A stretch of DNA of 61,807 nt, counting the filler, from Basidiobolus ranarum (taxonomy: Eukaryota), in assembly GCA_040143965.1 (NCBI GenBank). It is 9 parts of 9 records of this genome, joined end to end, with 100 filler letters (N's around TTAATTAATTAA, not from the genome) between each part and the next. Parts side by side here need not be neighbours in the genome. Positions count along the whole stretch, not along the records: positions 34,441 to 41,211 come from JASJQH010008123.1; 8 more parts are not named here. One strand, written 5' to 3'. Below the pieces are notes generated by a model that saw nothing but the letters and a program-made list of their open reading frames with translations, made no database searches and had not been told where the DNA came from. Positions 6,799 to 55,896 of the stretch are shown piece after piece. How positions within the stretch are numbered: the stretch's first letter is position 1; every line of letters starts with the position of its first letter. The translations under genes were made by a program, and so were the position numbers.

Positions 6799-6898
6799 NN
6801 NNNNNNNNNNNNNNNNNNNNNNNNNNNNNNNNNNNNNNNNNNTTAATTAATTAANNNNNNNNNNNNNNNNNNNNNNNNNNNNNNNNNNNNNNNNNNNN
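6799..6898. other. Artificial contig spacer N44-TTAATTAATTAA-N44
   Basis: Identical 100-bp spacer occurs 8 times; the linker gives stops in all six frames. Confidence 0.98.
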
Positions 6899-9435: not shown

Positions 9436-12400
9436 GCATCTATTTGATGTTTGATATGCTGAAATTTAGCTAAAATTGCTTAAATCAACCTAATTGAATT
9501 ATACTTTGCTACAGCAGCAAAAATTTCTGTATAGTCTATCTGAGTGTTTGGGAATAGCTTTTGGCTACTAGTCTAGCCTTGTTCTTTTCTATATTGCCAT
9601 CATATTTGCATTTAACTTTGAACACCCATTGGCAGCCATTTGATTTACTATCATTAGTTAAGTTGGTTAAAATCCAAGTTTGATTATTAATCAGAGCATG
9701 GTACTCATCAGCCATTGCAGATCTCTAAGATATTTGTGAAGGCCATTCAGGGTTTCTTTTACACTCTGGGGTGCATGTATTTGAGCTGTTCAGGCATAGA
9801 CCCAATTTTGAGACTCAATGATATAGTAATGAGGGCTATTTCTGATCTGATTTGATTTCCTGGTTTGGGATAAAGGTATTAAAACTTCTGGCATTGTATT
9901 TGGCACTTCAGTAGGCAAATTTTTGATTGAAGGGTTTACAAGAATGCCATTTTCTTCATTGCTTTGGTTTTAATCAATTTGAATGATTGGATCAGAAGAA
10001 AATTGATTTTAATCATCATCTGAGGTCATTTTAGAAGAATATTTTTCATTTTCATCAAACAAATCATCCCTGGACTTGATTAACTTGGAAATTTTGATAT
10101 CATAGAGTCTGTAGGACTTTGTTTGAGTACAATAACCTAGAAATGTGCATTTCTCACTTTTTGGATCACATTCAGACCAACCTATGGTCATAATTTGACA
10201 TGATCAATGCATCCAAAGATCCTCAAATGTTTTGCATCAGGTTTAGCTCCAAACTAAGCTTGATATGGTGTAGAGTTAGACATACTTCTAGTAAAGCACA
10301 TATTCTTCAGATATGTTGCTGTAGCAACAGATTCCACCCAAAAGTTATGAGATAAATTTTGCACATTTATCATAGATCTTGCCATTTCTATTATAGTCCT
10401 GTTAGCTCTTTCAGCAACTCCATTTTGTAGTGGTGAATAGGAGGGAATAGTTTCTTGCTTAATTCCATCAACTTTGCAATAGTGCTTTTATAGTGTTGAA
10501 GTTTATTCTCCACCTTTATCAGTATGTATTTTCTTGATTTTAGTTCCAGTTTTAGTCTCCACAAGAGTTTTACAATCTCTAAAGATAGAGAGAGCTTCTT
10601 CTTTTCTATCTATAAAGTAGACTCAAGTGTATCTTGTGTAATCATCAAAAGGTGTGATTAAATATCTTTTTCTGCCTTAAGAAAATTTTACATAGGTCCA
10701 TGCAAATCTGAATGAATTAGAACCAACTTTTGATAGATTTGATTAAACCAGAGCTCTTGAATGCTTTCCTGGCTTGTTTTCCACATATAAAACCCTCACA
10801 AATTTTCATTTTGGTTGGGGGGTTTATTTGTATACCAGAAATTAGGCAATTTTTGATCATTTTGCTCAAATAATTGAATCCAATATGGCCAAATCTCTTA
10901 TGCCATATTTCAATAGTTTCTTAATTGCAATAACTTATAACTACACATAAACCTCTTGTATTAAATGTTTGTTTGTAAAAGGTCTGATCTTTTTTGCCTG
11001 AAGCTAAATAATTCCCATTTTGATCAAAGATGGTGCATCCTAACCTATCTAAATTGAGTTTTAGCCCTTCTGAGGTGGCCTTGCATAGGGATATTGAATT
11101 CTTGGCAATATCTGGAACATGTAGTAAATCCTTAAAGTATATACTGTCTCTTCAGCAGCTCCAGTTAAATTGACTTGTATTGTTCCCATTCCAATAGCAT
11201 CTAATGAGTGGTCATTTCCTATAAAAACTTTTCCCATTGGGATTTCATCATAATCCACAAACCAATGTTTTTCATTTGTTAAATGTTGGAAAGCTCCAGA
11301 ATTTAATATACCACATCTGAGAGTCCTTGTTGATAGTCATAGATAGAGCAGTTATGAAAAAGTGATCTTCTGTTGTAACTACATTTCCAGATTCATTACA
11401 TTTTTCTTCTTTTGCAATTCATTTAAAGCAATCATTGCTTAAATGGCCAGTCCTTTCACAGTAATCACAAAATGTGTTACTTTTCTTTTTAAAGTGCTTT
11501 TGACCTTTATAGAAAGGCTTCCCATAGCCAATTAAAGCATTTACTTCATTCTTTTGGTTGGAATCTGATATGCATAAACGTTCATCTAGAAGTCTGCCAA
11601 ATGCATAATTTAAGGTCACATTTTCAGTTCTTAATTCTAAAGCCATTACCAGGCCCTGAAACTGTGTGGCAGGTTAATCAGGACTGTAACAATGATTTTG
11701 ATCAGTGGTATGCACTCCAATGCATTACATTTCATCCACTAAGTTAGTGACTCTATTTATCAGTGATATAATGTCTTGTCCTGGCTTCATCTTTAAGTTA
11801 AAGAATTGTCTTCTTAGTAGCATCTTGTTGGCTGCAGAATTTGTTTAGTTGGTGTCTTCCAAGGCTTTCCATACCTTCTTGGCTGTTTTAGCTCTTGATC
11901 ATAGAATTAGCAATTTGTCTTTAACATTAAGACAAATTGTGTTAAAGGCACTTTGTTCTTTTTTAACCTGGAGTAAAACTTTGGTTTCAGATAGTTTTTC
12001 ATGGTTTTCTTCTCCTATAGCAGTAACACAAAGTCCTTTTTCTTGCAGCAGTATTTTCATTTCAACTTTCCAAACTTGATAATTGGTTCCATCCAATTTT
12101 TCAGAAGAGGGAAAAGTTCCAAAATTTGAGAAGTAGACATTACAAGGAGTGCAAGCTTGGGGCTCATAATCTGATATATTATTTGGGAGCCTGTTGGTAG
12201 TGGTTTAAAGAAATAGAGGAATTGGTGGTTTTCTCTTATTGCTATATTGAGTAGAAAGTTGACATTTATATTTTGTCAGCATATAAACAAACAAACATGT
12301 AGAATGTGCTAAGGAGAGTCCTGGAAATATATGTGCAAAGTCTGGGGCCTCTAGCACAAGTTTGAAAAATCTATATATCTGAGAACTTCTAAGTTGGTAA

Positions 12401-12518
12401 AAATATTGTACATAAATTCTAACTGAGAATAATGGATAATGTCTTAGTGAATTATAAGATAACTAAGTACTAAGCTATATATGACTATACAGGTGTTTAG
12501 GCAATGCTAATTTCAACA
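9436..12518 (-). mobile_element. Decayed Ty1/copia family A element: 5' LTR 12172-12518, PBS, gag, protease, integrase, start of RT
   Basis: EKLDGTNYQVWK gag; CDYCERTGHLSNDC zinc knuckle; NSGAFQHLT protease-like; WHKRFGH; KCTFLGY; KARLVAK RT; many stops and frameshifts. Confidence 0.92.
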
Positions 12519-13574
12519 GAACTATATTGCTCACCATTGTTAGTACATACTTTCTTGATTTTAGTTCCAGTTTTAGTCACCACAAGTGTTTTGGAATCTC
12601 TACAGATAGAGAGATTTTTCTTTTCTTTGCATAGTGTAGACCCAAGTATATCATATATAATTGTGAATAAATGTGATCAAGTATCCTTTTCCACTCAGAG
12701 ATGCCTTTTACACTGGTCAACATAAATCTGAATGAATAGATCCAATTTTTTTACAGATTTGATTTGCACTTGAACAGTTGCCAAGCTTGTTTTCCATAAG
12801 TACCACCCTGACCAACTTCTATTTGGGTTGGCAGATTAACTTGAATTCCAGAAATTAAGCAATTTGTTCATTTTGCTCAAATAATCAAATCCAATATGGC
12901 CAAATTTCTTATGCTGTGATTGGATAGTTTCTTGATTGGAATAACTTATATTGACTCATCAATCTCTTGGATTATATGTAGGTTTGTATGAGTTTGGATC
13001 CTTTTCTTCCATGGCCAAGTAAATCCCATTTTGATAGGTGACAATGCATCCTGACTTATCAAAATTGAATTTTAGCCTTTCTGTGGTGGCTTTGCATACA
13101 GATATTAAATTCTTGGCAATATCTGGAACATGTAGTATATTCTTGAAAGTGTACACTTTCTCTTTAGAAGCACTAGTTAAGTTGACCTGAATTGTCGCTG
13201 CTCCAATGGCATCCAATATGTGCTCATCTTCCTTGAAAACCCTTCTAATTGGAATTTCTTCATAATCCACAAACCAATGTATTCATTTGTGAAATGTTAG
13301 GAGGCTCCAAAATTAATATAACTCATCTGAGAATCCTTGTTGGTGGTCATATATAGAGCAGATACAGACCAGTGATCTCTTGTTGTAAGCACATTTCCAG
13401 ATTCATTATGTTTTTCTTCTTGTGTATATCTTTCCAACCAATGTTTCTTATATGGCCAGATGTTTTATAGTATTCACAGAATGTGTTACCTTTCTTCTTA
13501 ATTTGTTCTTGACCCTTATAGGAAGGTTTCCCATAACCTATTAAAGCCTTTTCTTCATTCTTTTGGTTAGATCC
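12519..13574 (-). mobile_element. Second copia family A fragment (gag knuckle to integrase), interrupted by the preceding element
   Basis: Paralogous to 10540-11560 (DYEEIP...KNILHVPDIAKNLISV). Confidence 0.85.
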
Positions 13575-13693: not shown

Positions 13694-13793
13694 NNNNNNN
13701 NNNNNNNNNNNNNNNNNNNNNNNNNNNNNNNNNNNNNTTAATTAATTAANNNNNNNNNNNNNNNNNNNNNNNNNNNNNNNNNNNNNNNNNNNN
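13694..13793. other. Artificial contig spacer
   Basis: N44-TTAATTAATTAA-N44. Confidence 0.98.
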
Positions 13794-20586: not shown

Positions 20587-20686
20587 NNNNNNNNNNNNNN
20601 NNNNNNNNNNNNNNNNNNNNNNNNNNNNNNTTAATTAATTAANNNNNNNNNNNNNNNNNNNNNNNNNNNNNNNNNNNNNNNNNNNN
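20587..20686. other. Artificial contig spacer
   Basis: N44-TTAATTAATTAA-N44. Confidence 0.98.
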
Positions 20687-27465: not shown

Positions 27466-27565
27466 NNNNNNNNNNNNNNNNNNNNNNNNNNNNNNNNNNN
27501 NNNNNNNNNTTAATTAATTAANNNNNNNNNNNNNNNNNNNNNNNNNNNNNNNNNNNNNNNNNNNN
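27466..27565. other. Artificial contig spacer
   Basis: N44-TTAATTAATTAA-N44. Confidence 0.98.
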
Positions 27566-34340: not shown

Positions 34341-34440
34341 NNNNNNNNNNNNNNNNNNNNNNNNNNNNNNNNNNNNNNNNNNNNTTAATTAATTAANNNN
34401 NNNNNNNNNNNNNNNNNNNNNNNNNNNNNNNNNNNNNNNN
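34341..34440. other. Artificial contig spacer
   Basis: N44-TTAATTAATTAA-N44. Confidence 0.98.
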
Positions 34441-35251
34441 CACCGGCACCGGGGCCTGCTCCATATCCTGGCCGATCACCGGCGCCATTTCCTCCAGGTC
34501 CTGAGCCACCTCCATTTCCGCCAGGGCCGGAGCCACCTCCATTTCCAGTGTCATAAGAGTTTGGTCCTCCGTTACCTCCAGATCCGGATCCTGATCCTTC
34601 ACCGCCACCATTACCACCGGCACCGGGGCCAGCTCCATATCCTGGGCCTTCACCACCGCCATTTCCTCCAGGTCCTGAGCCACCTCCGTTACCACCAGCA
34701 CCATTTCCGGTGTCGTAAGCACTGGGTCCTCCATTATCGCCAGCACCGGATCCTGGTCCTTCGCCTCCACCGTTACCACCGACACTAGGGCCAGCTCCAT
34801 ATCCTGGACCTTCGCCTCCACCATTACCACCGGCACCAGGGCCAGCTCCATATCCTGGACCTTCACCTCCACCATTTCCACCTGCGCCAGGGCCAGCGCC
34901 TCCTCCATTGCCGCCCGATCCTGGCCCCTCACCTCCACCATTGGCACTTTCACATTCTTCTTCGTCATTATCACCACCATGATCACCGCCATTGTCACCT
35001 GATCCAGATCCAGGGCCAGTACCACCACTACCACCACCATTTCCTGGTCCTCCATATCCCCCATTACCTCCTGAACCAGATCCAGGGCCTTCACCACCAC
35101 CATTTCCTAAATTTCCCAAAATATCTGTTATATCGTATGTAGGTTTTGCTACTGTATGATCTTCACCGTTGTGGCGGCGATGTAAAGCGGCACCATTGAT
35201 AGCGGAAATTCCGGAAAGAACAAATAAAAGTTTAGGTGCGGTAATTTTCAT
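34441..35251 (-). CDS. Secreted glycine-rich repeat protein, 3'-partial
   Basis: MKITAPKLLFVLSGISAINGAALHRRH signal peptide plus dibasic site, then GPGAGGNGGGEGPGYGA repeats; TATA-like tataaaa upstream near 35350. Confidence 0.85.
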
Positions 35252-36462
35252 TTTGGTATTAAATAAAAAGTGTCTAAGATTGCAAGTAAAAAAGAGATAG
35301 AAAAGATACTTGATTTCACAATTCAAATATTCAGTCGGAGGGGAAGCTTTTATAGCACGAAAGAGAAGAACTTCGTTTGTTAATGATGTTGAACTAATTA
35401 TACCCCTTTCGTAGAATTCAAAATCAAATATTGTTCCTGTTGAGATTTATGCAGGGGAGGTTTCCTTCAAAATATACACAATGATCTCCTCGATTTCAGA
35501 ACAACTTGATACAACATCCAAATCCACCTGCCCCTAGATTCTGTATGGGTTTCAGGAAGAAAGTCAATGAGATATACGAATATTGACCAAGAAACTGTGC
35601 AACCCATCTTCATTGTATATGGATGATTTGATTTGACGGTAGTGGTAGTGATAATTTGCCTTAAAGGATCCTATTTCCAATGAGATTACAGTAACCATTT
35701 CATGACTAGTTTTGTAAATAGGATAGTAGACATATGCAAGCGATCTTGGTCTAAGGGCTAAGGGATAGAATACAACTACCAAAGTGGCTGCATTACTTTC
35801 ACATTCTAACTCCTTACTTGCTGGGTGTTACAATGTGTTTCAATGGATTCCATTCGTCATCCACCAATATACTCCATCTAAGTAAACAAGCTGATGCTTG
35901 GTATTGGTTCCCTGTATGCGTTGCTTCTAGTCAATGCTGGCTTTTTAACGCTTTAGGTGTTTGTGAGAAGTAATGCAGTGAAGGGCTCTGCTCCAAAACA
36001 TGTAAGGAAGGGGATTGTTTACACGAATATGCCAACGCATGTTTCTCATCAATCCCTCAGCCATGCCACCGCCAGATCCAGATCAATACCTTGGGTCACG
36101 GTCATAGTCATGGTCACAGTCAGGGTCATGCCATTGATAAGGAATTCATTAAATATTTCTAGATCAATATTACAGGTCACAAATGGAAATACTCGGAATC
36201 ATATATTTCTCTGCATCTAAAATTGGTATTTACTTAGATGTACTCATAATACTGATTTTGATGATGAAGCCTCATTGGACAGCTTATACGTCAACGGTGG
36301 CTGCTTTCAAAGATATATCTTCAACGATTATCAAAAGTAATATAGAATCCAGTCCAAGCCTTGAATATGATTTCTCAATTCATGTGTATGATGTTCTGAT
36401 TTTCGGATGCAGTTTAATGGTGAAAAAATGATGCGTTGGAAGTGAAATAGTATAAACCAACA

Positions 36463-36828: not shown

Positions 36829-37741
36829 CTTCGCAGGTAATCATATATGATCTGCCTTTTAGTGAAGGTGGAATGTCACGTGAAGTTTCAGTAGTTCAAA
36901 GTTGTGTCAGTAATCCGATACAAGGATACTAGGAATAGATGATCAGCGATTATAAGCATCAGCGCCATTTTAGGACCAGTGAAAGTTGATTTAGATATTT
37001 CCTAATTCAATCAACTCGTTGGTAAGATATTATTATACACATTTATTGAATTCTATATGAACAATGATTGAAATTCTTTTGGTGATAAAAGTAGAGTAAT
37101 GCAATGACAAGTGAATATCTGTCTCAAGTTGAATTGAAAGTACATAGTTATACCCTTAGATACTAAGAGAAGGAAGGATGCATAACTGTTCCAGTACTTA
37201 ATAACTTCATTTCAACAGGGGTAAATCAGATATTTCATAATAAAAAGTCACCGACCAAATAAAAATTGCTGAAAGAGTGTCTATGTTCATATCTAAAGTT
37301 TGCTGCATTCCTGGTTCCAGTTCCAGATGATTAAGCCCAAGTTTAACTATGCAGTCAGATGATTATAATCATTATGACAGAAGTGAGGCATATAGAACAC
37401 AGGATGCCAAAGTTCCTGGTCCTATAGATTTTCATATTCCCACTTTGCCGTAATTTAGTTAAGAATACTACATAGAGAGTTATCTCAAGAAAGTGAACAA
37501 CACGCGCTTGCGAAATATTCTTTCTATTGAACATTAAAGAATCGTGCATTAATCAAGAGTAGAAGTATCAATATTCCAACAGATTGTTAACATAGTGTAA
37601 AATATATCATATTGCCTTTAAGTTAGTTCAAATCTTTTAGTAAGGGTGGCATATTTTTGGGCTGTGAGTTCACACCGAAACACTAGTCTGTTGTAGGATA
37701 CTAGGCTGGGTATAGTTAACCGCGACCTACGCTGAGGTTAA

Positions 37742-38041
37742 CTACTGAGGTGTTAGGGCTATTATACCATTAAGTTGAATCTGAGTAGAGATAGCGTTGA
37801 TAGCGTCCAGACGTTGTTGAATAGGTTGTGAATCAGTTATCCTTTGTATGCCGTTGGCTACTTGTACTGTCAGTGAACAAATCCTTTGCAAATTGTTGGT
37901 CACATCTTCTAATGCATTGTCAGTTATTTGAGCAAGAGATATAGTATCATTAGCACCACGGTTTACCTGTGCTAACCCATCACCCTGAGCAGTGGACGGA
38001 TGATTTTGAGTAGTACCGTTTGGATTCAAAGTAAAGGCCAG
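37742..38041 (-). pseudogene. Bacterial flagellin N-terminal (D1)-like ORF; no in-frame ATG
   Basis: GLAQVNRGANDTISLAQITDNALEDVTNNLQRICSLTVQVANG...QQRLDAINAISTQIQLNGIIAL resembles FliC [43 protein letters not shown]...QRLNEIDRVSGQTQFNGVKVL (recalled, not searched). Confidence 0.8.
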
Positions 38042-38875
38042 TATTAAATTCTGAGGTGAAGTCAACTGGAAATAAGATACAATATGCAAAGATTTTGAGG
38101 ATTTAAATATATTTTGAGTTATTACTTTATCTCAATTCACTAATAACGTCTCATTTGACCTCGAAAGGAACATAACCTCTTATTTATTTACCCTGCAGTG
38201 CTATATTGAGATTCTATATCGGATGAGGTGTATCTTGTTCAATTTGTTAAAGTGACTTGTTGGTCGTTTTCCCAGAACAATCTCCACTGAAACCATAAGT
38301 CCCGCATCCGATCCAAACTCCTTAATCACTCCATATCACAGTGCTAAGCGCATCGCTCACAGATGTATTCGCCATTTGGGGTGCGAACTTTCAGCAGACG
38401 ATCCAATAAGGATATTTCTACTTTGAATCGTTTCTCGCTTAATAATTTGAATCCCATTCTCTCACTCATGCCCATGACAACAACTGCAAACATTCACAAG
38501 CGTGAAATGAAGTGATGTTACAGAGTCACTGTTCATATGTTCATCAAAATTCAAGGTCACATTGTACAAGAATAGCACGCCTTACTTCTTGACAAGCTTG
38601 ATCATCATGAAATTTTCTCAAGTCAAAGCTGTACAGGAATTTTAAACAAATCAATGTTGTAGTTCTTAAGTTTCACATATACAAGAAATCTCTCCCATTA
38701 ATGTGGATGCTTCTTTGTAAAGGTCGCATCATGGTAAAATTGGTGAAATGGTATGCGTTCTCTTAGAGATTTGCTAATAGTATGCTTCTGTAGTGCATTA
38801 TTGAGCGACCAAAGTGGTGCGGATATTGTTATCAAGTGTATATTATACAAATCTCTGGTAACATGTGCATATAGT

Positions 38876-40700
38876 TGTTAAAGTATTTTGGGAGCTTGTT
38901 GGAAGTGGCTTGCATAACTGGAGAAATTGGTGGTTTTCACTCATTGATCCAAAGTTGAAATTTACAGTTTTGTCACAATAACAACAAACTAACATGTAAG
39001 ATGTGTTAAGGAAGATCCCGGCAGTACATGTGCAAAGTTTGAGGCTTCTAGCACAGGTTTGAAAAAATTTACATATCTGAGAACTTCTAAGTTGGTGTCA
39101 ATATTACAACTAAATCCCAATGAAGAACAATGGGTGATATCTTAGTGAAATATAGGATAACTAAATGCTAAGCTATATATGACTATATGGATGCTTAGCT
39201 AATGATAATTTCAACTAAGTAGTCACATAAACTAATCCTAAAGAAGGTCTAAATTTCTCAAGTTTCTGCCTAGCTAATGGTTTGGTTAATATATTAACAA
39301 TCATGTTTTCAGTAGAACAATGAGTCAAGTTGCTATGCTTATTCTCTATGGCCTTACTTATCAAATGAAGTCCAATATCTATATGGTTGCTTCCAGTATA
39401 AGATATGGGATTTCTAGCCAATATAATTCAACTTTGATTATCCTGAAATAGCATAGTTGATAAGTTTTGCAAAAAGCTCAAATCTGTTAGCTGTCTTTTT
39501 ATGCATATTACTTCTTTTGTTACTTCACAAGCATCCATGTATTGTGCTTATGATGTTGAAAATGCTACCATAGGTTGTTTCTTTGTATTTCAAGAAATGA
39601 CTCCATTACAGCAAAGTAATATTGATCCTATTATAGATCTTCTGTCTTCAATATGCTAAAGTATTTGGGAGCCTGTTGCAAGTTGTTTGGAGAATTAGAA
39701 AAATTGGTGGTTCTCACTTATTGACATATTGAGTAGAAAGTAGATACTTATAGTTTGTCAAGATATAAGCAAACTAATGTGTAAAATATGTTAAGGAAGG
39801 TCCCAGGAACATATGTACAAAGTTTGGGGCTTCTAGCATAAGTGTAAAAAATCTATATATCTGAGAACCTCAGAGTTCATAAAAATTCTATCTAAGTTCC
39901 AATTCTGAGAGCTTCTAAGTTGGCATCAATATTGCAAGTAAATTTTTCATCAGAATAATGGGTAATATCTTAGTGAAATATTAGATAACTAAGTACTAAG
40001 GTATATATGACTGTATTGGTGTTTAGGTAATGCTAACTTCAACATAATATCCCTTTCCCAATATGCATCTGATTATTCCTTCTAAGCAAAATTTGATACA
40101 GATTATGTGAATCTTAAGCACCCATGCATATTTTCATTGCATAACTTGAAAATCTGCTTAACTGATGTGATTTGATTCAATCCACAATTTTAATGATATG
40201 GGCACAATATTACAACAGAATGTGAAACATCTTGCCATGTTCCAACAACAACATATATCAGTGTACCAATTATAGTTTGTCAAGGATTAATACAGCTGTT
40301 ATTCAAATCCAAGAACATCTGAATTGAGCCATTTCTAATCAAGTTCAGCTTTAGCTTCATTGGTATAGATACTGGATCTGATTATTACATGTTAAGGTTC
40401 TTAGCTAATTGAGGATGTAATTAGGCTGGTCCAAAGCTATTGTTTTGTAGCTCTATCTATCTTTAGTTAGATTCCATGACAGTAAGTCAGTTTAACAGGA
40501 TCAGTCTTTTTGAATGTGGCAGATAAGCTTGATTAGGTTCTATCCATAATATTCAAGTGATTGCCTATTACAAGTAAATCATATACATAAAAGGCTAATA
40601 AAACTGGGCGTGTCTAATCCAGCTGGAAGTAGATACTATAGTTAGCATTAATCTTTTGAAATTTGAGTATCTATCAAAAAGGTTTTAACTTGTTTTCCTG
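38876..40700 (-). mobile_element. Copia family A 3' remnant (RT, RNase H, 3' LTR 38876-39215) with a nested solo LTR at 39654-40044
   Basis: HIDIGLHLI...ENMIVNILTKPLAR; nested LTR has near-TSD CAATA/TAATA and splits the RNase H start. Confidence 0.85.
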
Positions 40701-41211: not shown

Positions 41212-41311
41212 NNNNNNNNNNNNNNNNNNNNNNNNNNNNNNNNNNNNNNNNNNNNTTAATTAATTAANNNNNNNNNNNNNNNNNNNNNNNNNNNNNNNNN
41301 NNNNNNNNNNN
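41212..41311. other. Artificial contig spacer
   Basis: N44-TTAATTAATTAA-N44. Confidence 0.98.
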
Positions 41312-41707
<396 letters not shown>

Positions 41708-42189: not shown

Positions 42190-43531
42190 TTAGAAGTTTT
42201 GGAAGAGATGTGCGTAGGGATCTTCAAAGCTACCACTTTCAATAGGCTCTTCTGGATACCGGTCAAAATTGGAGGTATCTCCAGGATGACGGAATAAAGG
42301 TACAATAGGTGCCTACAACTGGGAGTTAGAAAAATCGAGTTAAAATATGAGAGAAGATTATTTGACTTACTGGAATTTTACGATCGTGAACAGTTTGCCA
42401 GTCAATCCCGCGAAACCACTTGTGATTCTTTACATCTTCAGAGCCGCCTTTGAGATTTCCTAGACGTTTGGTTCGATCATTTGTCAACAGTTTTTTTATA
42501 AGATCTCTAGCAGTAGGATCAAAGTGAGATGGGAACATGATGCGTCCATCCAAAATCTTCTCGTAGATACCAAATGGATTATCATCAAAGAAAGGTGGAT
42601 ATCTGGGATGAAAGTTATCGATTAGTTGGATTCTAGTTCACAGTGCCCTATACTCTACATACCCTGCCAACATTTCGAAAATCAAAATTCCCAAGGCCCA
42701 CCAATCGACGGGTTTGCACTGTCCTTTACACTGTATGATTTCAGGTGCAAGGTACTCTGGTGTCCCACACAGTGTCCATGTCCTATCCTCCACGATTTTA
42801 GCAAAGCCAAAGTCCGTTATCTTAATATGTCCACGTTCATTTAATAACAAATTTTCTGGTTTAAGGTCTCGATAAATGATATCCTTTGAGTGTAAATACT
42901 CAATTGCAAGAACAATCTCCGCTGCGTAAAACCGAGTCATATCATTTGTGAAACGACCAGCCCGTCTCAAGTGTGAAAATACTTCGCCACCGATCACATA
43001 CTCCAGCAACATGTACAGGTTGTGGTCGTCTTGAAAAGCGCAGAAACTAGTGAATATAAAGTTATTGCTGATGAGTATACAGTGATGAAGATTATTCCAC
43101 ATAATAACTTACAGATTTACTACGAAGGGGAATTCAATCAAAGTCAAGATTTGTTTTTCAGAGTTAATATGTTCGACCTGCTTTAGTCGTACCACTACCT
43201 CCTTCTTTAATACTTTCATTGCATAGTAGTTATCGGTGCCTTTGTGACGTGCAAGATACACTCTTCCAAACGTACCAGTACCTAGTATAAAATTGAAGAT
43301 AGGAAAAAGAGTTTTGACCATTAACATTATTAAATTTCATCATAATAATTTGGCTAAAGCGTAGTTACCTAAAGTTTGCTCAAGTTCAAAGTCCGCAAGA
43401 GTAAAATTTACTTTAGCCGCCTCTTTTACTTCTCGTTCAGCCTTTGTTTCCATCTTGCCATCAGTTTTAGAGAGGACCGGTGTAGCATCATGTTCAAGAG
43501 TGGATACGGGAGCGGTCATTGCCGTGGCCAT
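42190..43531 (-). CDS. cAMP-dependent protein kinase catalytic subunit, 5 exons (43531-43369, 43281-43113, 43046-42663, 42602-42371, 42312-42190)
   Basis: [44 protein letters not shown] and C-terminal FQNF (FxxF); all introns are GT-AG and frame-consistent. Confidence 0.94.
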
Positions 43532-44704
43532 GTATATAACCAGTGGAGTTTGTGTTAGGTTATAGGGAGGTTGTTTTAAATATGGCTATACCCTTATTAA
43601 AAGTAACAAAGAGGTGAAGTAATATGGAGGGAAATTAGTTTCTTTCTCTTTACAAGTTAGAATAGCGTCCAAGGTCAAGAATGCTAGTTGGCAGAAAGTA
43701 AAGGGATGACCAAAAGCAAAATCATGAAAAAAAAACACTTGGTTTGAAATTCCTGGTATATATTACCAAAAGCAATATACACAATTCGATAATTTCCAGG
43801 CTAATGATGGTAAAAGCCAGTAGCGCTTCAATTTCGGCCTATTTTTTTGGACACGTACACTCAAAATCCCAGCAAAACCAATACAGATACTTGGAGAAAA
43901 GCCTACCTCCTGTTCTCACATGTCTATCAGAGTGTCTTAGGTTTCCTAAACTTAACTTAGCTTTATCCCCCTAAACACACTTGAGTTTGGCAGTTATACT
44001 CGCATTTGAAAAATTAATATCGAACAAACAGCGGATTACTGCATTGGAGTCTCGATGAGTAGAGATTAGTTATAATTAGTGAGAGTCATGGTAAAACATG
44101 ATGGAAAATCCGAATCAGCCCCATAGAGTGCCGACGATGCATGCAATGGAGATACAGCATTCCAACTAGCGTATAGTTTTACGGCATTTATTGGTGCCTA
44201 TTATTGTACTGAAACTAAATATCCCCGTGACATCGTATCTAGTTAATGCCTCTCCATATTGTACACTAAAACCCATAATTAGATTCTGTCTGTTCCAGTC
44301 AACGGCACCATATGAGGAGGCACAATGAATAAATCAGCTTCGGAAGAATCCAAACATATCTAGATTAAATTCAGGAGGCTCAAGCAAGGTACTAGCTTAT
44401 CATATCCCAATGAGAAAGCACTTGTGAGTGTCTTTTTACCAACAATAAATCGATTTATGCTGATCCATTCGGATTCCAAGAGTCTGTCCCTTGACTACAA
44501 CCAGGGTAGATTTGTCATTATTGCAATGGCATTTAGTACACATATACGCAGGCTATCTAATCTTTCCTTATCTAGGGTATCGATTTAATATATTGTGCTC
44601 ACTTGATTTCCTCAAATCAATCGACTGCCATTGATCATGCCTCGATACTGAGATATATAAAAGCAAGGATCTGGCCCCTTGTTCTTCATTCAACACTGTG
44701 ACAA

Positions 44705-45818: not shown

Positions 45819-46129
45819 TGTTGAGGTATTTTGGGAGTTTGTTGGAAGTGGTTTTTAGAGCTAGAACAATTGGTGGTGTTCACTTATTGATTTATTGAGT
45901 AGAAAGTTGACATTTATAGTTTTGTCAAGAGGTAAACAAACAAACGTATAGAATGTGTTAAGGATGGTCCCAGGAACATGTGTGCAAGGTTTGGACTAGG
46001 ACAAGTTCTCAAAATGTTCCAAGTAAATTCCTCTTGAGAATAGTGAGTGATATCCTAGTTCAATATGGAATAACTAAATACTAAGCTATATATGACCATA
46101 TAGATGTTTAGGCTATGCTAATTTCACCA
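45819..46129 (-). mobile_element. Solo family A LTR
   Basis: Reverse-complement match to other copies; TG..CA ends; no clear TSD. Confidence 0.8.
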
Positions 46130-47076
46130 GATTGTGCTTTTTCATTTTCTGTAACTCTGAAAGTTAAAGCTGGTAAATAATTGCTTGTTTTGTATATTAT
46201 CCTAAAATGGCATACGACAGTTTATTCAAACTAAATTCACAGTTCTGAAGCACCGTTTTTAGTTTCACTCGCAGTACTTGGCTAGATTGTCCCATTGATG
46301 GAGATATATAATTATGGGAAGCAGTCGGTCGCTGTTTGGATATGACAGAATATTGCTGATCTTAGAACAATCCACCGCCAACCTCCAAGTGAGAAGTGAG
46401 TCGAACACGAAACTGTCGAGAACTCATCCTGCTCCTACCCAACTTAGAATTCGTTAGACCTTTGGTCTATATATATTCTAATATATATATAAAACATCAA
46501 TTTAAAGTTGAAGACGCCAAATAGAGCAACACTAAACAGCATATTCTTCAATACTATCAAGTACTAAATATGCACCATTTTAGGCTCAATACATCAGAAC
46601 AAGTCCATTTACAGGACAAATGACTATAGTTTTTAATAAGAATCTACACACAGATTACGGCTCATAACCATAAAAGTATCTAATCCCAATCTGAATTCCC
46701 TTATTTGAATAGTGAGCCATAAAAGAGAGTTCTGTCCAAAAATGATTGATATATTCTCAAAAAAAGGGCTCACTCTACAACCCGAACCAGTCAGATTTTG
46801 TGGTAGTGATTATTGTGAGATTGAACTGAGTGGGAACATAAAAGCTATATTGAGGGAAGAATATACAGGATCAGCCTTGAAGAGAAACTGGCTTATCCAG
46901 CAGGATCAATGCTCGAAGTAGAAATAAACTGAGAAATCCGTACTTGGAGTAGTCGGTGAATTTTAGTATCTTTGCCTTGGATTCGATGTCCACTATTGGA
47001 GTGGCTATCTCATAGTTGGGTGCAGAAAGTTGTTCGATCAACTTTGGTGTGATCATTTTTGATGGTGAGAAGGTAA

Positions 47077-48081: not shown

Positions 48082-48181
48082 NNNNNNNNNNNNNNNNNNN
48101 NNNNNNNNNNNNNNNNNNNNNNNNNTTAATTAATTAANNNNNNNNNNNNNNNNNNNNNNNNNNNNNNNNNNNNNNNNNNNN
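48082..48181. other. Artificial contig spacer
   Basis: N44-TTAATTAATTAA-N44. Confidence 0.98.
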
Positions 48182-54948: not shown

Positions 54949-55048
54949 NNNNNNNNNNNNNNNNNNNNNNNNNNNNNNNNNNNNNNNNNNNNTTAATTAA
55001 TTAANNNNNNNNNNNNNNNNNNNNNNNNNNNNNNNNNNNNNNNNNNNN
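54949..55048. other. Artificial contig spacer
   Basis: N44-TTAATTAATTAA-N44. Confidence 0.98.
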
Positions 55049-55896
55049 TATATCTGAGAACTTCTAAGTTGGTGTCAACATTCTAAGTAAATTCCTCATG
55101 AGAATAATGGATAGTATCATTGTGAAATAGAAGATAACTAAGTACTAAGCTATATATGACTATATAGGTGTTTAGGCAAAGCTAATTTCAACACAAACTA
55201 TGTTCATATGGTACTTAGTGTGAAGGTACTTTGGGAATCTGTTTGAAGTGCTGTCGAGTAATAGATAAGTAGGTGGTTTATACTAAGTGATATTTTGAGT
55301 TGAGAGTTCCCTATGAGAAATATGGGTATGAATACCACAGGAAAACCAGAAAAAACACAACTATAGGGGTAGGTAGTGTTATAAGAAAATCGTAGGAATA
55401 GAAGGCTGGTAGAGTAACCATAAGAAAACGGGTGCAATGCCATTACAATACCATTAAAAAAAAGTAGAAAAATAGTACAAAATCTAAACCTAATTTTTTT
55501 TTGTAAGGGAGTTGACATATATATTTTTGTCAAGATATAAACAAGCTAATATGTAGAATATCTTATGGAAAGACCTAGAAACATGGTTGCAAAGCTTGGG
55601 TCTTCTAGCACAAGTTTGAAACAATGTATATATCTGAGAACTTCTTGTTAAAATTAGATTTGCCTAAACACCAATATTGTGATATATAGCTTAGTACTTA
55701 GCTATCTTATATTTCACAAAGATATTCTCAATTATTCTCATAAGGCATTTACTTATAATATTTTTACCAACTTAGAAGTTCTCAGATATATAGATTTTTC
55801 AAACTTGTGCTAGAAGCCCCAAACTTCGCATACATGTTCCTGGAATATTCCTTAACAAATTCTACACATTTATCTGAGTACATCTTGACAAAACTA
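55049..55896. mobile_element. Cluster of partial family A LTRs (minus 55049-55192, minus about 55510-55645, plus 55646-55896)
   Basis: Matches to the family A LTR in both orientations. Confidence 0.8.

Follow-up and report, generated by a model that had tools for sequence, protein, structure and literature searches.

Bacterial genes in the fungus Basidiobolus are already documented. The main text of Tabima et al. 2020 (PMC7466969) gives 2-5% as the share of Basidiobolus gene models with a bacterial appearance, ranks Actinobacteria third among their sources, and describes the bacterial-type genes as indistinguishable from fungal genes in composition. Here we describe the remnant of a bacterial flagellin gene, referred to below as the relic, on the minus strand of a 61,807-nucleotide (nt) stretch of Basidiobolus ranarum DNA (assembly GCA_040143965.1, nine parts joined end to end), referred to below as the window. 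The relic extends from its old start, at about position 38155, to its old stop at 37625-37623, and groups with flagellins of Streptomycetaceae. We conclude with good confidence that it is a horizontally acquired flagellin pseudogene which is now non-functional. To our knowledge, fungi of this group have no bacterial flagella. A flagellin fold in a non-swimming role has a precedent in p5 and p6 of Sphingomonas sp. A1, which are alginate-binding cell-surface flagellins.

Literature searches on flagellin and fungi, on gene transfer between kingdoms and on flagellin homologues of organisms that lack flagella yielded no account of a fungal sequence derived from flagellin. The main text of PMC7466969 nowhere uses the word "flagellin", the candidates themselves being in its supplementary tables S4 and S5. 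Bacterial flagellin is likewise not mentioned in the available text of a 44-genome survey of early-diverging fungi (PMC11291939), where the sole match to "flagell" concerns loss of the fungal flagellum, or in that of a 19-genome Basidiobolus preprint (bioRxiv 10.1101/2025.03.31.646025). The phrase "orphan flagellin", which we use for the bacterial relatives described below, was not found in the literature searched on Streptomyces flagellins.

Flagellin identity of the minus-strand reading frame

The core of the relic is a stop-to-stop open reading frame (ORF) of 129 codons followed by TAG, which contains no ATG as judged from the sequence and its translation. The original prediction, made from the DNA sequence, was that this ORF derives from flagellin, and the profile search that it called for gave a match to Pfam Flagellin_N (PF00669) with an E value of 1.1e-9 and a score of 38.9 bits, exceeding the curated cut-off of 26.6 bits. 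The match covered ORF residues 40-123 and profile positions 44-131 of 139. The NCBIfam model for FliC/FljB matched the ORF with an E value of 4.2e-19, and 61 distinct sequences of solved flagellins matched at E values of 0.01 or less, the best at 3.6e-14. When 1.84 billion representative proteins were scanned in full with HMMER, 776 matched at E values of 0.001 or less. The similarity of the ORF to flagellin is therefore real and well past the level of chance. Word-indexed searches of 5.8 billion protein clusters gave no close relative and nothing at an E value of 0.001 or less, which is explained by their 5-residue word filter, given the 776 matches of the full scan. The strings quoted in the prediction, CTG-AFTLNPN, ATATATTTAAA, QRICSLTV and VNLSVG, are all present in the sequence, although some of them must be read differently, as described below.

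Relationship to orphan flagellins of Streptomycetaceae

The two best of the 776 HMMER matches belong to one family and are 57% identical to the ORF over its residues 43-126; the next-ranked library matches are about 50% identical and none exceeds 54%. One member of the cluster is named by its source as "flagellin [Streptomyces sp. NBC_00096]" (WP_405496553.1). When the best match was used to scan one genome per species (185,579 species), 66 loci were found, the seven closest of which (L001-L007) were from Streptomyces and Kitasatospora. Over 125 aligned columns the relic is 58-62% identical to nine Streptomycetaceae-type flagellins and at most 50% identical to 115 others. In a quick IQ-TREE search over 123 columns, comprising the relic, the nine Streptomycetaceae-type sequences and other flagellins, the relic was joined to the nine with support of 99 in the Shimodaira-Hasegawa-like approximate likelihood ratio test (SH-aLRT), the nine themselves grouping together at 82. 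Independently of the tree, 17 signature columns were defined, at which the nine are invariant and other flagellins rarely (<10%) have the same residue. The relic has the clade residue at 9/17 of these columns and none of the 115 others has it at more than 2, so that clade-specific residues and a common branch both connect it to the orphan flagellins of Streptomycetaceae.

The bacterial genes of this clade are intact, encoding 303-307 amino acids with both Flagellin_N and Flagellin_C (PF00700), and have a GC content at third codon positions (GC3) of 0.93-0.97. Five bacterial genomes of the clade were searched for FHIPEP/FlhA, the flagellar export gate, which was found in 0/5, the same search being positive in four flagellated controls. 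Each of the five genomes has a single Flagellin_N. In L001-L007 the flagellin gene follows a YidB-like gene (PF20159) within a cassette of about 1.6 kb (for example, L006:5327-6924), the flanks of which are otherwise unrelated; the cassette was recognized in the 6 other loci by comparison with L004, and Pfam was run on L006 only. Among 301 sampled genomes of the Streptomyces/Kitasatospora family, 8 had any flagellin match (E value of 1e-10 or less), 4 of the 8 being of the close type. Elsewhere, JGI metagenome contigs gave one match, an ordinary flagellin at 39% identity, and phage records gave only ordinary flagellins, all below 60% identity. Among matching plasmid records, 327/328 were below 60% identity and one lay in the 80-90% band. 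A DNA search of plasmids with the 1.6-kb cassette found no copy, the 7 records returned being all partial at 60-80%.

The relic as a broken but collinear flagellin gene

The features of the relic, together with the nearest repeats, are collected in Table 1. The relic can be followed from the old start of a flagellin gene to its old stop, the middle having been lost. On the 5' side, HMMER aligned ORF residues 5-126 collinearly with flagellin residues 14-138 of chain 9atb_A, and several library flagellins in the full scan aligned from ORF residue 4 onward. By hand count, the spacing between the TQN and ND landmarks is 58 residues in the relic and 57 in its nearest relatives. The original prediction had held that a stretch of about 50 residues containing flg22 was absent, with only a link of about 12 residues in its place; the alignment does not bear this out, the stretch being present and in register but decayed. 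With the register fixed, 9-11 of the residues encoded by the first 49 codons are kept, and the identity at codon positions 1 and 2 was equalled in only 5-22 of 2000 codon shuffles. On their own these codons are unrecognizable as flagellin (2.5 bits on an N-terminal profile, equalled in 23/300 shuffles). By hand count 4/22 residues of the flg22-equivalent are kept relative to the nearest relatives, so that the N-terminal D0/flg22 segment, though in register, is not conserved as in bacterial flagellin. Survival of flg22 in another frame between compensating frameshifts was considered and rejected, the other two frames scoring -2.2 bits or nothing on the N-terminal profile.

Table 1. Positions in the window of the relic, its parts and the nearest dispersed repeats
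Feature	Positions	Strand	Remarks
ATG in the frame of the ORF	38171..38173	-	Six codons 5' of the site that aligns with flagellin residue 1; from sequence and translation
Relic 5' part, flagellin residues 1 to ~50 (N-terminal D0 helix and flg22-equivalent)	38006..38155	-	In register, heavily diverged
In-frame TGA	38132..38134	-	At flagellin residue 8; from sequence
Stop-to-stop ORF, 129 codons + TAG, no ATG	37742..38131	-	
Well-kept N block, D1 helices, ORF residues 43-125	37757..38005	-	One 12-nt in-frame deletion
Piece C1, NTSVVNLSVGR	37722..37754	-	Other frame; matches DTGVVNLSAAR, L004 residues 249-259
Piece C2, VNYTQPSILQQTSVSV	37673..37720	-	Frame of the ORF again after a 35-nt deletion; matches ANYTQASILQQAGISV
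Piece C3, VNSQPKNMPPLLKDLN + TAA 37625-37623	37623..37673	-	Frame moved by a 10-nt deletion; matches VNAQPKNILPLLQQLG + stop
Dispersed ~330-nt repeat, two copies (38887-39219, 39664-40047)	38887..40047	.	~80% alike

This placement changes the reading of the start region. The CTG at 38041 proposed as a start (CTG-AFTLNPN) lies inside the flg22-equivalent segment, where ...SSKDDAA... of flg22 would stand; flagellin residue 1 is placed by alignment at about 38155, with an in-frame ATG at 38173. From this ATG to the TAG at 37744-37742 the frame is broken only once, by the TGA at 38134-38132. The TATA-like string ATATATTTAAA occupies 38112-38102 within the former coding sequence, as codons Q-N-I-F-K, and a promoter role for it is not supported. 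GC content by codon position is flat in the first 49 codons (.30/.38/.27) and coding-like in the well-kept block (.54/.40/.28). These first 49 codons have an overall GC content of 0.29, compared with 0.42 in the rest of the relic; their length is kept and their frame is almost open. The well-kept block is about 56% identical to Streptomycetaceae-type flagellins, and DNA and codon alignments show that its in-frame deletion corresponds to QEVA/QEVS of the relatives.

Downstream of the TAG of the ORF, the last ~45 flagellin residues persist as three pieces that alternate between two frames, and the position of the original stop codon is kept in the TAA. A C-terminal profile was built from the last 62 residues of the Streptomycetaceae-type relatives and scanned against 4,292 six-frame fragments of the window. 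Piece C2 was the best (E value of 1.5e-4) and piece C3 the second best (E value of 9.4e-4) of all the fragments, in the correct order, and tblastn gave an E value of 1e-3 for each of them. Piece C1 scored weakly on its own (E value of 4.3), its order and place being correct. The frame change at piece C1 follows a net loss of ~7 nt near 37757, and a large internal deletion (about L004 residues 143-248) directly precedes the piece. In this 306-amino-acid relative, the missing residues span the variable domain and reach halfway into the C-terminal helical region.

The VNLSVG string (other frame, 37739-37722) had been tentatively assigned to a frameshifted QVG hairpin. By hand count it matches the C-terminal VVNLSAAR at 19/25 bases and the N-side at 11/20, so the C-terminal assignment is the better one, and a reading in which one large deletion leaves VNLSVG on the N-side was rejected for its poorer DNA match. 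The residues N-T-S preceding VVNLS are compatible with both sides of the large deletion, and its exact junction is uncertain for this reason.

Counted relative to L004 from DNA and codon alignments, the lesions are a TGA at residue 8, the 12-nt in-frame deletion, the ~7-nt net loss, the loss of residues ~143-248, and the deletions of 35 nt and 10 nt. No uninterrupted frame therefore runs from the old start to the old stop, given the TGA, the TAG and the three frameshifting deletions, and no complete C-terminal helical region is in frame with the N-terminal one. At near-universal columns, those conserved in at least 90% of 124 flagellins, the relic is changed at 17/46, the orphan clade also differing in 3; loss of constraint on the relic is clear. 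The out-of-frame C-terminal pieces keep 28/41 residues, which is not below the 56% of the in-frame block. Since these pieces are as well kept as the block, the breaks look recent relative to the coding history of the gene.

The same comparison bears on whether the relic could still be functional. The 129-codon frame, or a frame starting from the ATG at 38173 if the TGA is read through or edited, or one with an upstream exon, might encode a truncated "mini-flagellin" of N-terminal helices; alternatively, the region might give rise to a regulatory RNA. Although 129 codons do remain open in AT-rich DNA, the ORF has no ATG and a TGA stands between it and the only in-frame ATG. The coding-like GC pattern of the well-kept block and the absence of stops from 118 aligned codons, somewhat below the neutral prediction (see below), are points for such a product, but the equal preservation of the C-terminal pieces argues against the N-terminal ORF having outlived the rest as a mini-protein, and more than a third of the near-universal residues have changed. 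N-terminal flagellin helices alone are without their C-terminal partner helices. Rfam recognized no family in 35.5-40.5 kb on either strand, and the word-indexed protein searches, within the limit of their filter, gave no close protein. We regard a surviving function of this kind as very unlikely; most likely the relic has no present function.

Coding history inferred from codon-position composition

The composition of the relic was compared with that of L004 over 118 aligned codons. G/C was kept at 91/122 sites at codon positions 1 and 2 and at 39/110 sites at position 3 (Fisher p of 1.9e-9), so that the loss of G/C was not equal at all three codon positions. The GC3 of the relic is 0.35, far below that of the nearest bacterial genes given above. 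Neutral decay of an L004-like gene was then simulated until GC3 reached 0.36 (200 runs). The simulated sequences had a mean amino acid identity of 9.5% (maximum of 20%), compared with 62% observed, and kept 39% of the G/C at positions 1 and 2, compared with 75% observed. A never-used insertion of Streptomyces-like high-GC DNA decaying neutrally is excluded by both the retention of G/C and the simulated identity. The third-position GC has fallen to the fungal level with positions 1 and 2 keeping their G/C, and we therefore interpret the shift in composition as having occurred under protein constraint.

This shift could have taken place in the fungal lineage itself or in an unsampled low-GC bacterial donor. 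If the latter, the relic may have been dead on arrival: a flagellin fragment already AT-rich at third positions would have been inserted, never expressed, and left only to decay. Low GC3 would then be accounted for without selection in the fungus, and the sister rather than nested position of the relic relative to the sampled Streptomycetaceae genes would be natural, as would its several deletions and stop and the lack of an intron or other eukaryotic gene structure. However, no low-GC member of the clade was present among the 1.84 billion representative proteins, the 66 loci from 185,579 species genomes or the JGI metagenome contigs. The stop codons also speak to this question. None is observed in the 118 well-aligned codons, where 2.5-3.2 in-frame stops would be expected if all the divergence were neutral (P of none, 0.02-0.07) and 1.7 if one third of it were (P of none, 0.13). 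Furthermore, the first 49 codons have diverged much further than the others and are still open and in register. We consider arrival as a dead fragment unlikely, though a possibility to be taken seriously. The site of the shift leans weakly toward the fungal lineage, given the lack of a low-GC clade member in the collections searched; the fungal-like composition of Basidiobolus bacterial-type genes described in the main text of PMC7466969, which fits long residence, leans weakly the same way.

Genomic surroundings

The relic has a GC content of 0.386 and its flanks 0.33-0.38, and the host genes of the window have a GC3 of 0.30-0.48. An isocitrate lyase gene in the window has an uninterrupted frame of 571 codons. 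Among named proteins the nearest are those of Basidiobolus ranarum (77%, and 92% for a partial sequence) and B. meristosporus (74%), with other early-diverging fungi ranking after them. With 74-77% identity to full-length Basidiobolus proteins, this gene agrees with the original claim that the flagellin-derived sequence lies within a fungal contig. The window contains further eukaryotic genes, among them those for a ribosomal S12/S23 protein and a protein kinase. Two copies of a dispersed repeat (Table 1) start ~730 nt beyond the 5' end of the relic. Host genes and repeats with host-like composition thus flank the relic, as expected of integrated horizontally acquired DNA. Judged from these sequence features, the relic resides in a Basidiobolus-like fungus, has fungal repeats and genes on its flanks, and appears to be integrated in a fungal chromosome.

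Open frames of at least 80 codons from the seven closest bacterial loci were compared with the window, and only the flagellin relic, plus its antisense shadow, was matched. The neighbors of the closest bacterial loci are thus without a match in the window, which agrees with the earlier observation that no other bacterial gene is nearby. Six small ORFs around the relic gave no Pfam family.

These surroundings make it highly improbable that the relic is an artefact, either a chimera made in assembly or contaminating bacterial DNA fused to a fungal contig. The flagellin-like stretch is only ~0.53 kb long with no other bacterial gene around it, and fungal dispersed repeats lie <0.75 kb away. A contaminating gene would be expected to be intact; this one carries one stop and five deletions. 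Its GC3 is 0.35, compared with 0.93-0.97 in the nearest bacterial genes. No near-identical sequence was found in the protein, species-genome, metagenome, phage or plasmid collections searched. Pairs of 44-base N runs occur in the window at 6799-6898, 13694-13793, 20587-20686, 27466-27565, 34341-34440, 41212-41311, 48082-48181 and 54949-55048, that is, every ~6.89 kb. Because the spacing is regular, they are read as masks, which indicates that none of them is an assembly gap adjoining the relic.

Several other features of the window were recorded. A head-to-tail ubiquitin repeat at 41264-41707 on the plus strand, recognized by eye and partly masked, and several protein kinase exons at 42326-43585 on the minus strand, with Pfam Pkinase on 42638-43108, are ordinary eukaryotic genes lying 3-5 kb from the relic in the window. 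A 353-codon open frame with Gly/Pro-rich repeats at 34385-35446 on the minus strand has internal direct repeats of 84-155 nt and no Pfam family; it may be the "secreted gene" mentioned in the original prediction. One pair of N runs interrupts this Gly/Pro-rich ORF and another interrupts the ubiquitin repeat. More copies of the ~330-nt repeat, ~80% alike, are found at about 12168-12521, 45830-46132 and 55049-55621. The two copies near the relic are ~780 nt apart and flank a 70-codon frame at 39215-39427 on the minus strand, which has no Pfam family. The end of this frame resembles what we take to be the tail of Copia-type polyproteins.

Origin and fate of the relic

Horizontal transfer followed by remodelling, as proposed at the outset, is still the best reading of the locus, and the copy is a pseudogene. 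In the account that we favor, one complete bacterial flagellin gene would have been transferred horizontally into the nuclear genome of a Basidiobolus-like fungus. The gene belongs to a small clade of stand-alone ("orphan") flagellins otherwise found here only in Streptomycetaceae without a flagellar export apparatus. Before it broke, the gene would have been translated and protein-constrained for a long period in an AT-rich genome, most simply as a working gene in the fungal lineage, since G/C is largely retained at its positions 1 and 2 and has come down to the fungal level at its third positions. Breakage would have been recent relative to that period, with the loss of the middle, the TGA, the 12-nt deletion and the three frameshifting deletions (~7, 35 and 10 nt). 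We judge this account as a whole, a transferred orphan-type gene long translated in an AT-rich genome and now dead, to be somewhat favored. For the added step that the gene once worked in the fungus, the balance is close to even, or slightly better.

Several observations weigh against this account. The YidB-like gene that directly precedes the flagellin in the bacterial cassette is not directly upstream of the relic, and has left no trace in the window at an E value of 1e-3 or less, nor anything better than an E value of 0.095 in 37-40 kb. The codon-position signature is equally expected from an unsampled low-GC bacterial donor, and the working period in the fungus is one that we infer. The decay is uneven, the first 49 codons being ~20% identical and the next 81 being 56% identical, and simple neutral decay does not explain this. 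It would be compatible with constraint on the export/polymerisation segment having been lost early, in a non-flagellated host that was still translating the gene, and also with local hypermutation. Finally, phylogeny, which had been suggested as a means of finding the donor, gave a firm grouping with the Streptomycetaceae orphan flagellins but not the donor itself. The branch of the relic is very long (2.14 changes per column), its letter composition is odd, and it branches as sister to the nine bacterial sequences rather than from among them; because of these properties its exact place in the tree is unsure and the donor is not pinned down.

The favored account can be extended. An orphan-type flagellin, already without flagella in some Streptomycetaceae, might have been taken up by the Basidiobolus lineage and translated until it acquired the fungal codon composition, its N-terminal export/polymerisation segment drifting freely. 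The copy in the window would then be one that died recently, and intact copies might perhaps exist in related strains or species. We offer this extended scenario tentatively and consider it rather doubtful with all its parts taken together.

Comparison with known systems

The relic is the remnant of a horizontally acquired gene, and transfers of this kind were already known in this fungus; its cargo and its set of nearest relatives are unusual. Like the acquired Basidiobolus genes described in the main text of PMC7466969, it lies among fungal genes, has a fungal-like composition and has no intron, and Actinobacteria are among the donor groups given there. It differs in being a pseudogene, the catalogue of that study consisting of predicted gene models, for secondary metabolism and other roles. 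The cargo stands out because flagellin is a textbook structural, immunogenic motility protein.

Compared with canonical FliC/FljB of Salmonella and E. coli (1ucu, 3a5x), the N-terminal D1 helices of the relic align with an E value of about 2e-11. The relic QRICSLTV aligns with the FliC segment named as a TLR5 hot spot in the original prediction. In contrast to FliC/FljB, however, the relic is not an intact gene and is only ~48-50% identical to these proteins, and its flg22-equivalent has decayed even from the nearest relatives as described above. The "Flagellin homolog" chains of Sphingomonas (2zbi, 3k8v, 3k8w) matched the ORF with E values of 1.8e-10 to 1.6e-9, no closer than ordinary flagellins. 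Nothing found here ties the relic or the Streptomycetaceae clade to polysaccharide binding.

The closest likeness is to the orphan flagellins of L001-L007, with which the relic shares a distinctive C-terminal tail, NYTQ.SILQQ...VN.QPKN..PLL, and whose hosts, like the organism carrying the relic, are without flagella. It differs from them in being broken and AT-rich, in having lost the middle third, and in the lack of a trace of the partner gene. Close relatives of the relic are confined to single flagellin genes that accompany a YidB-like gene in actinomycetes without an export gate. This raises the question of what job a flagellin does in organisms unable to build a flagellum. If the relic was inserted and never used, it amounts to an ordinary trace of gene transfer. 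The codon-position pattern, however, suggests that the gene was perhaps long in use before its death, and if it did work in the fungus, the flagellin fold would serve a second purpose, apart from motility, that benefits filamentous bacterium and filamentous fungus alike.

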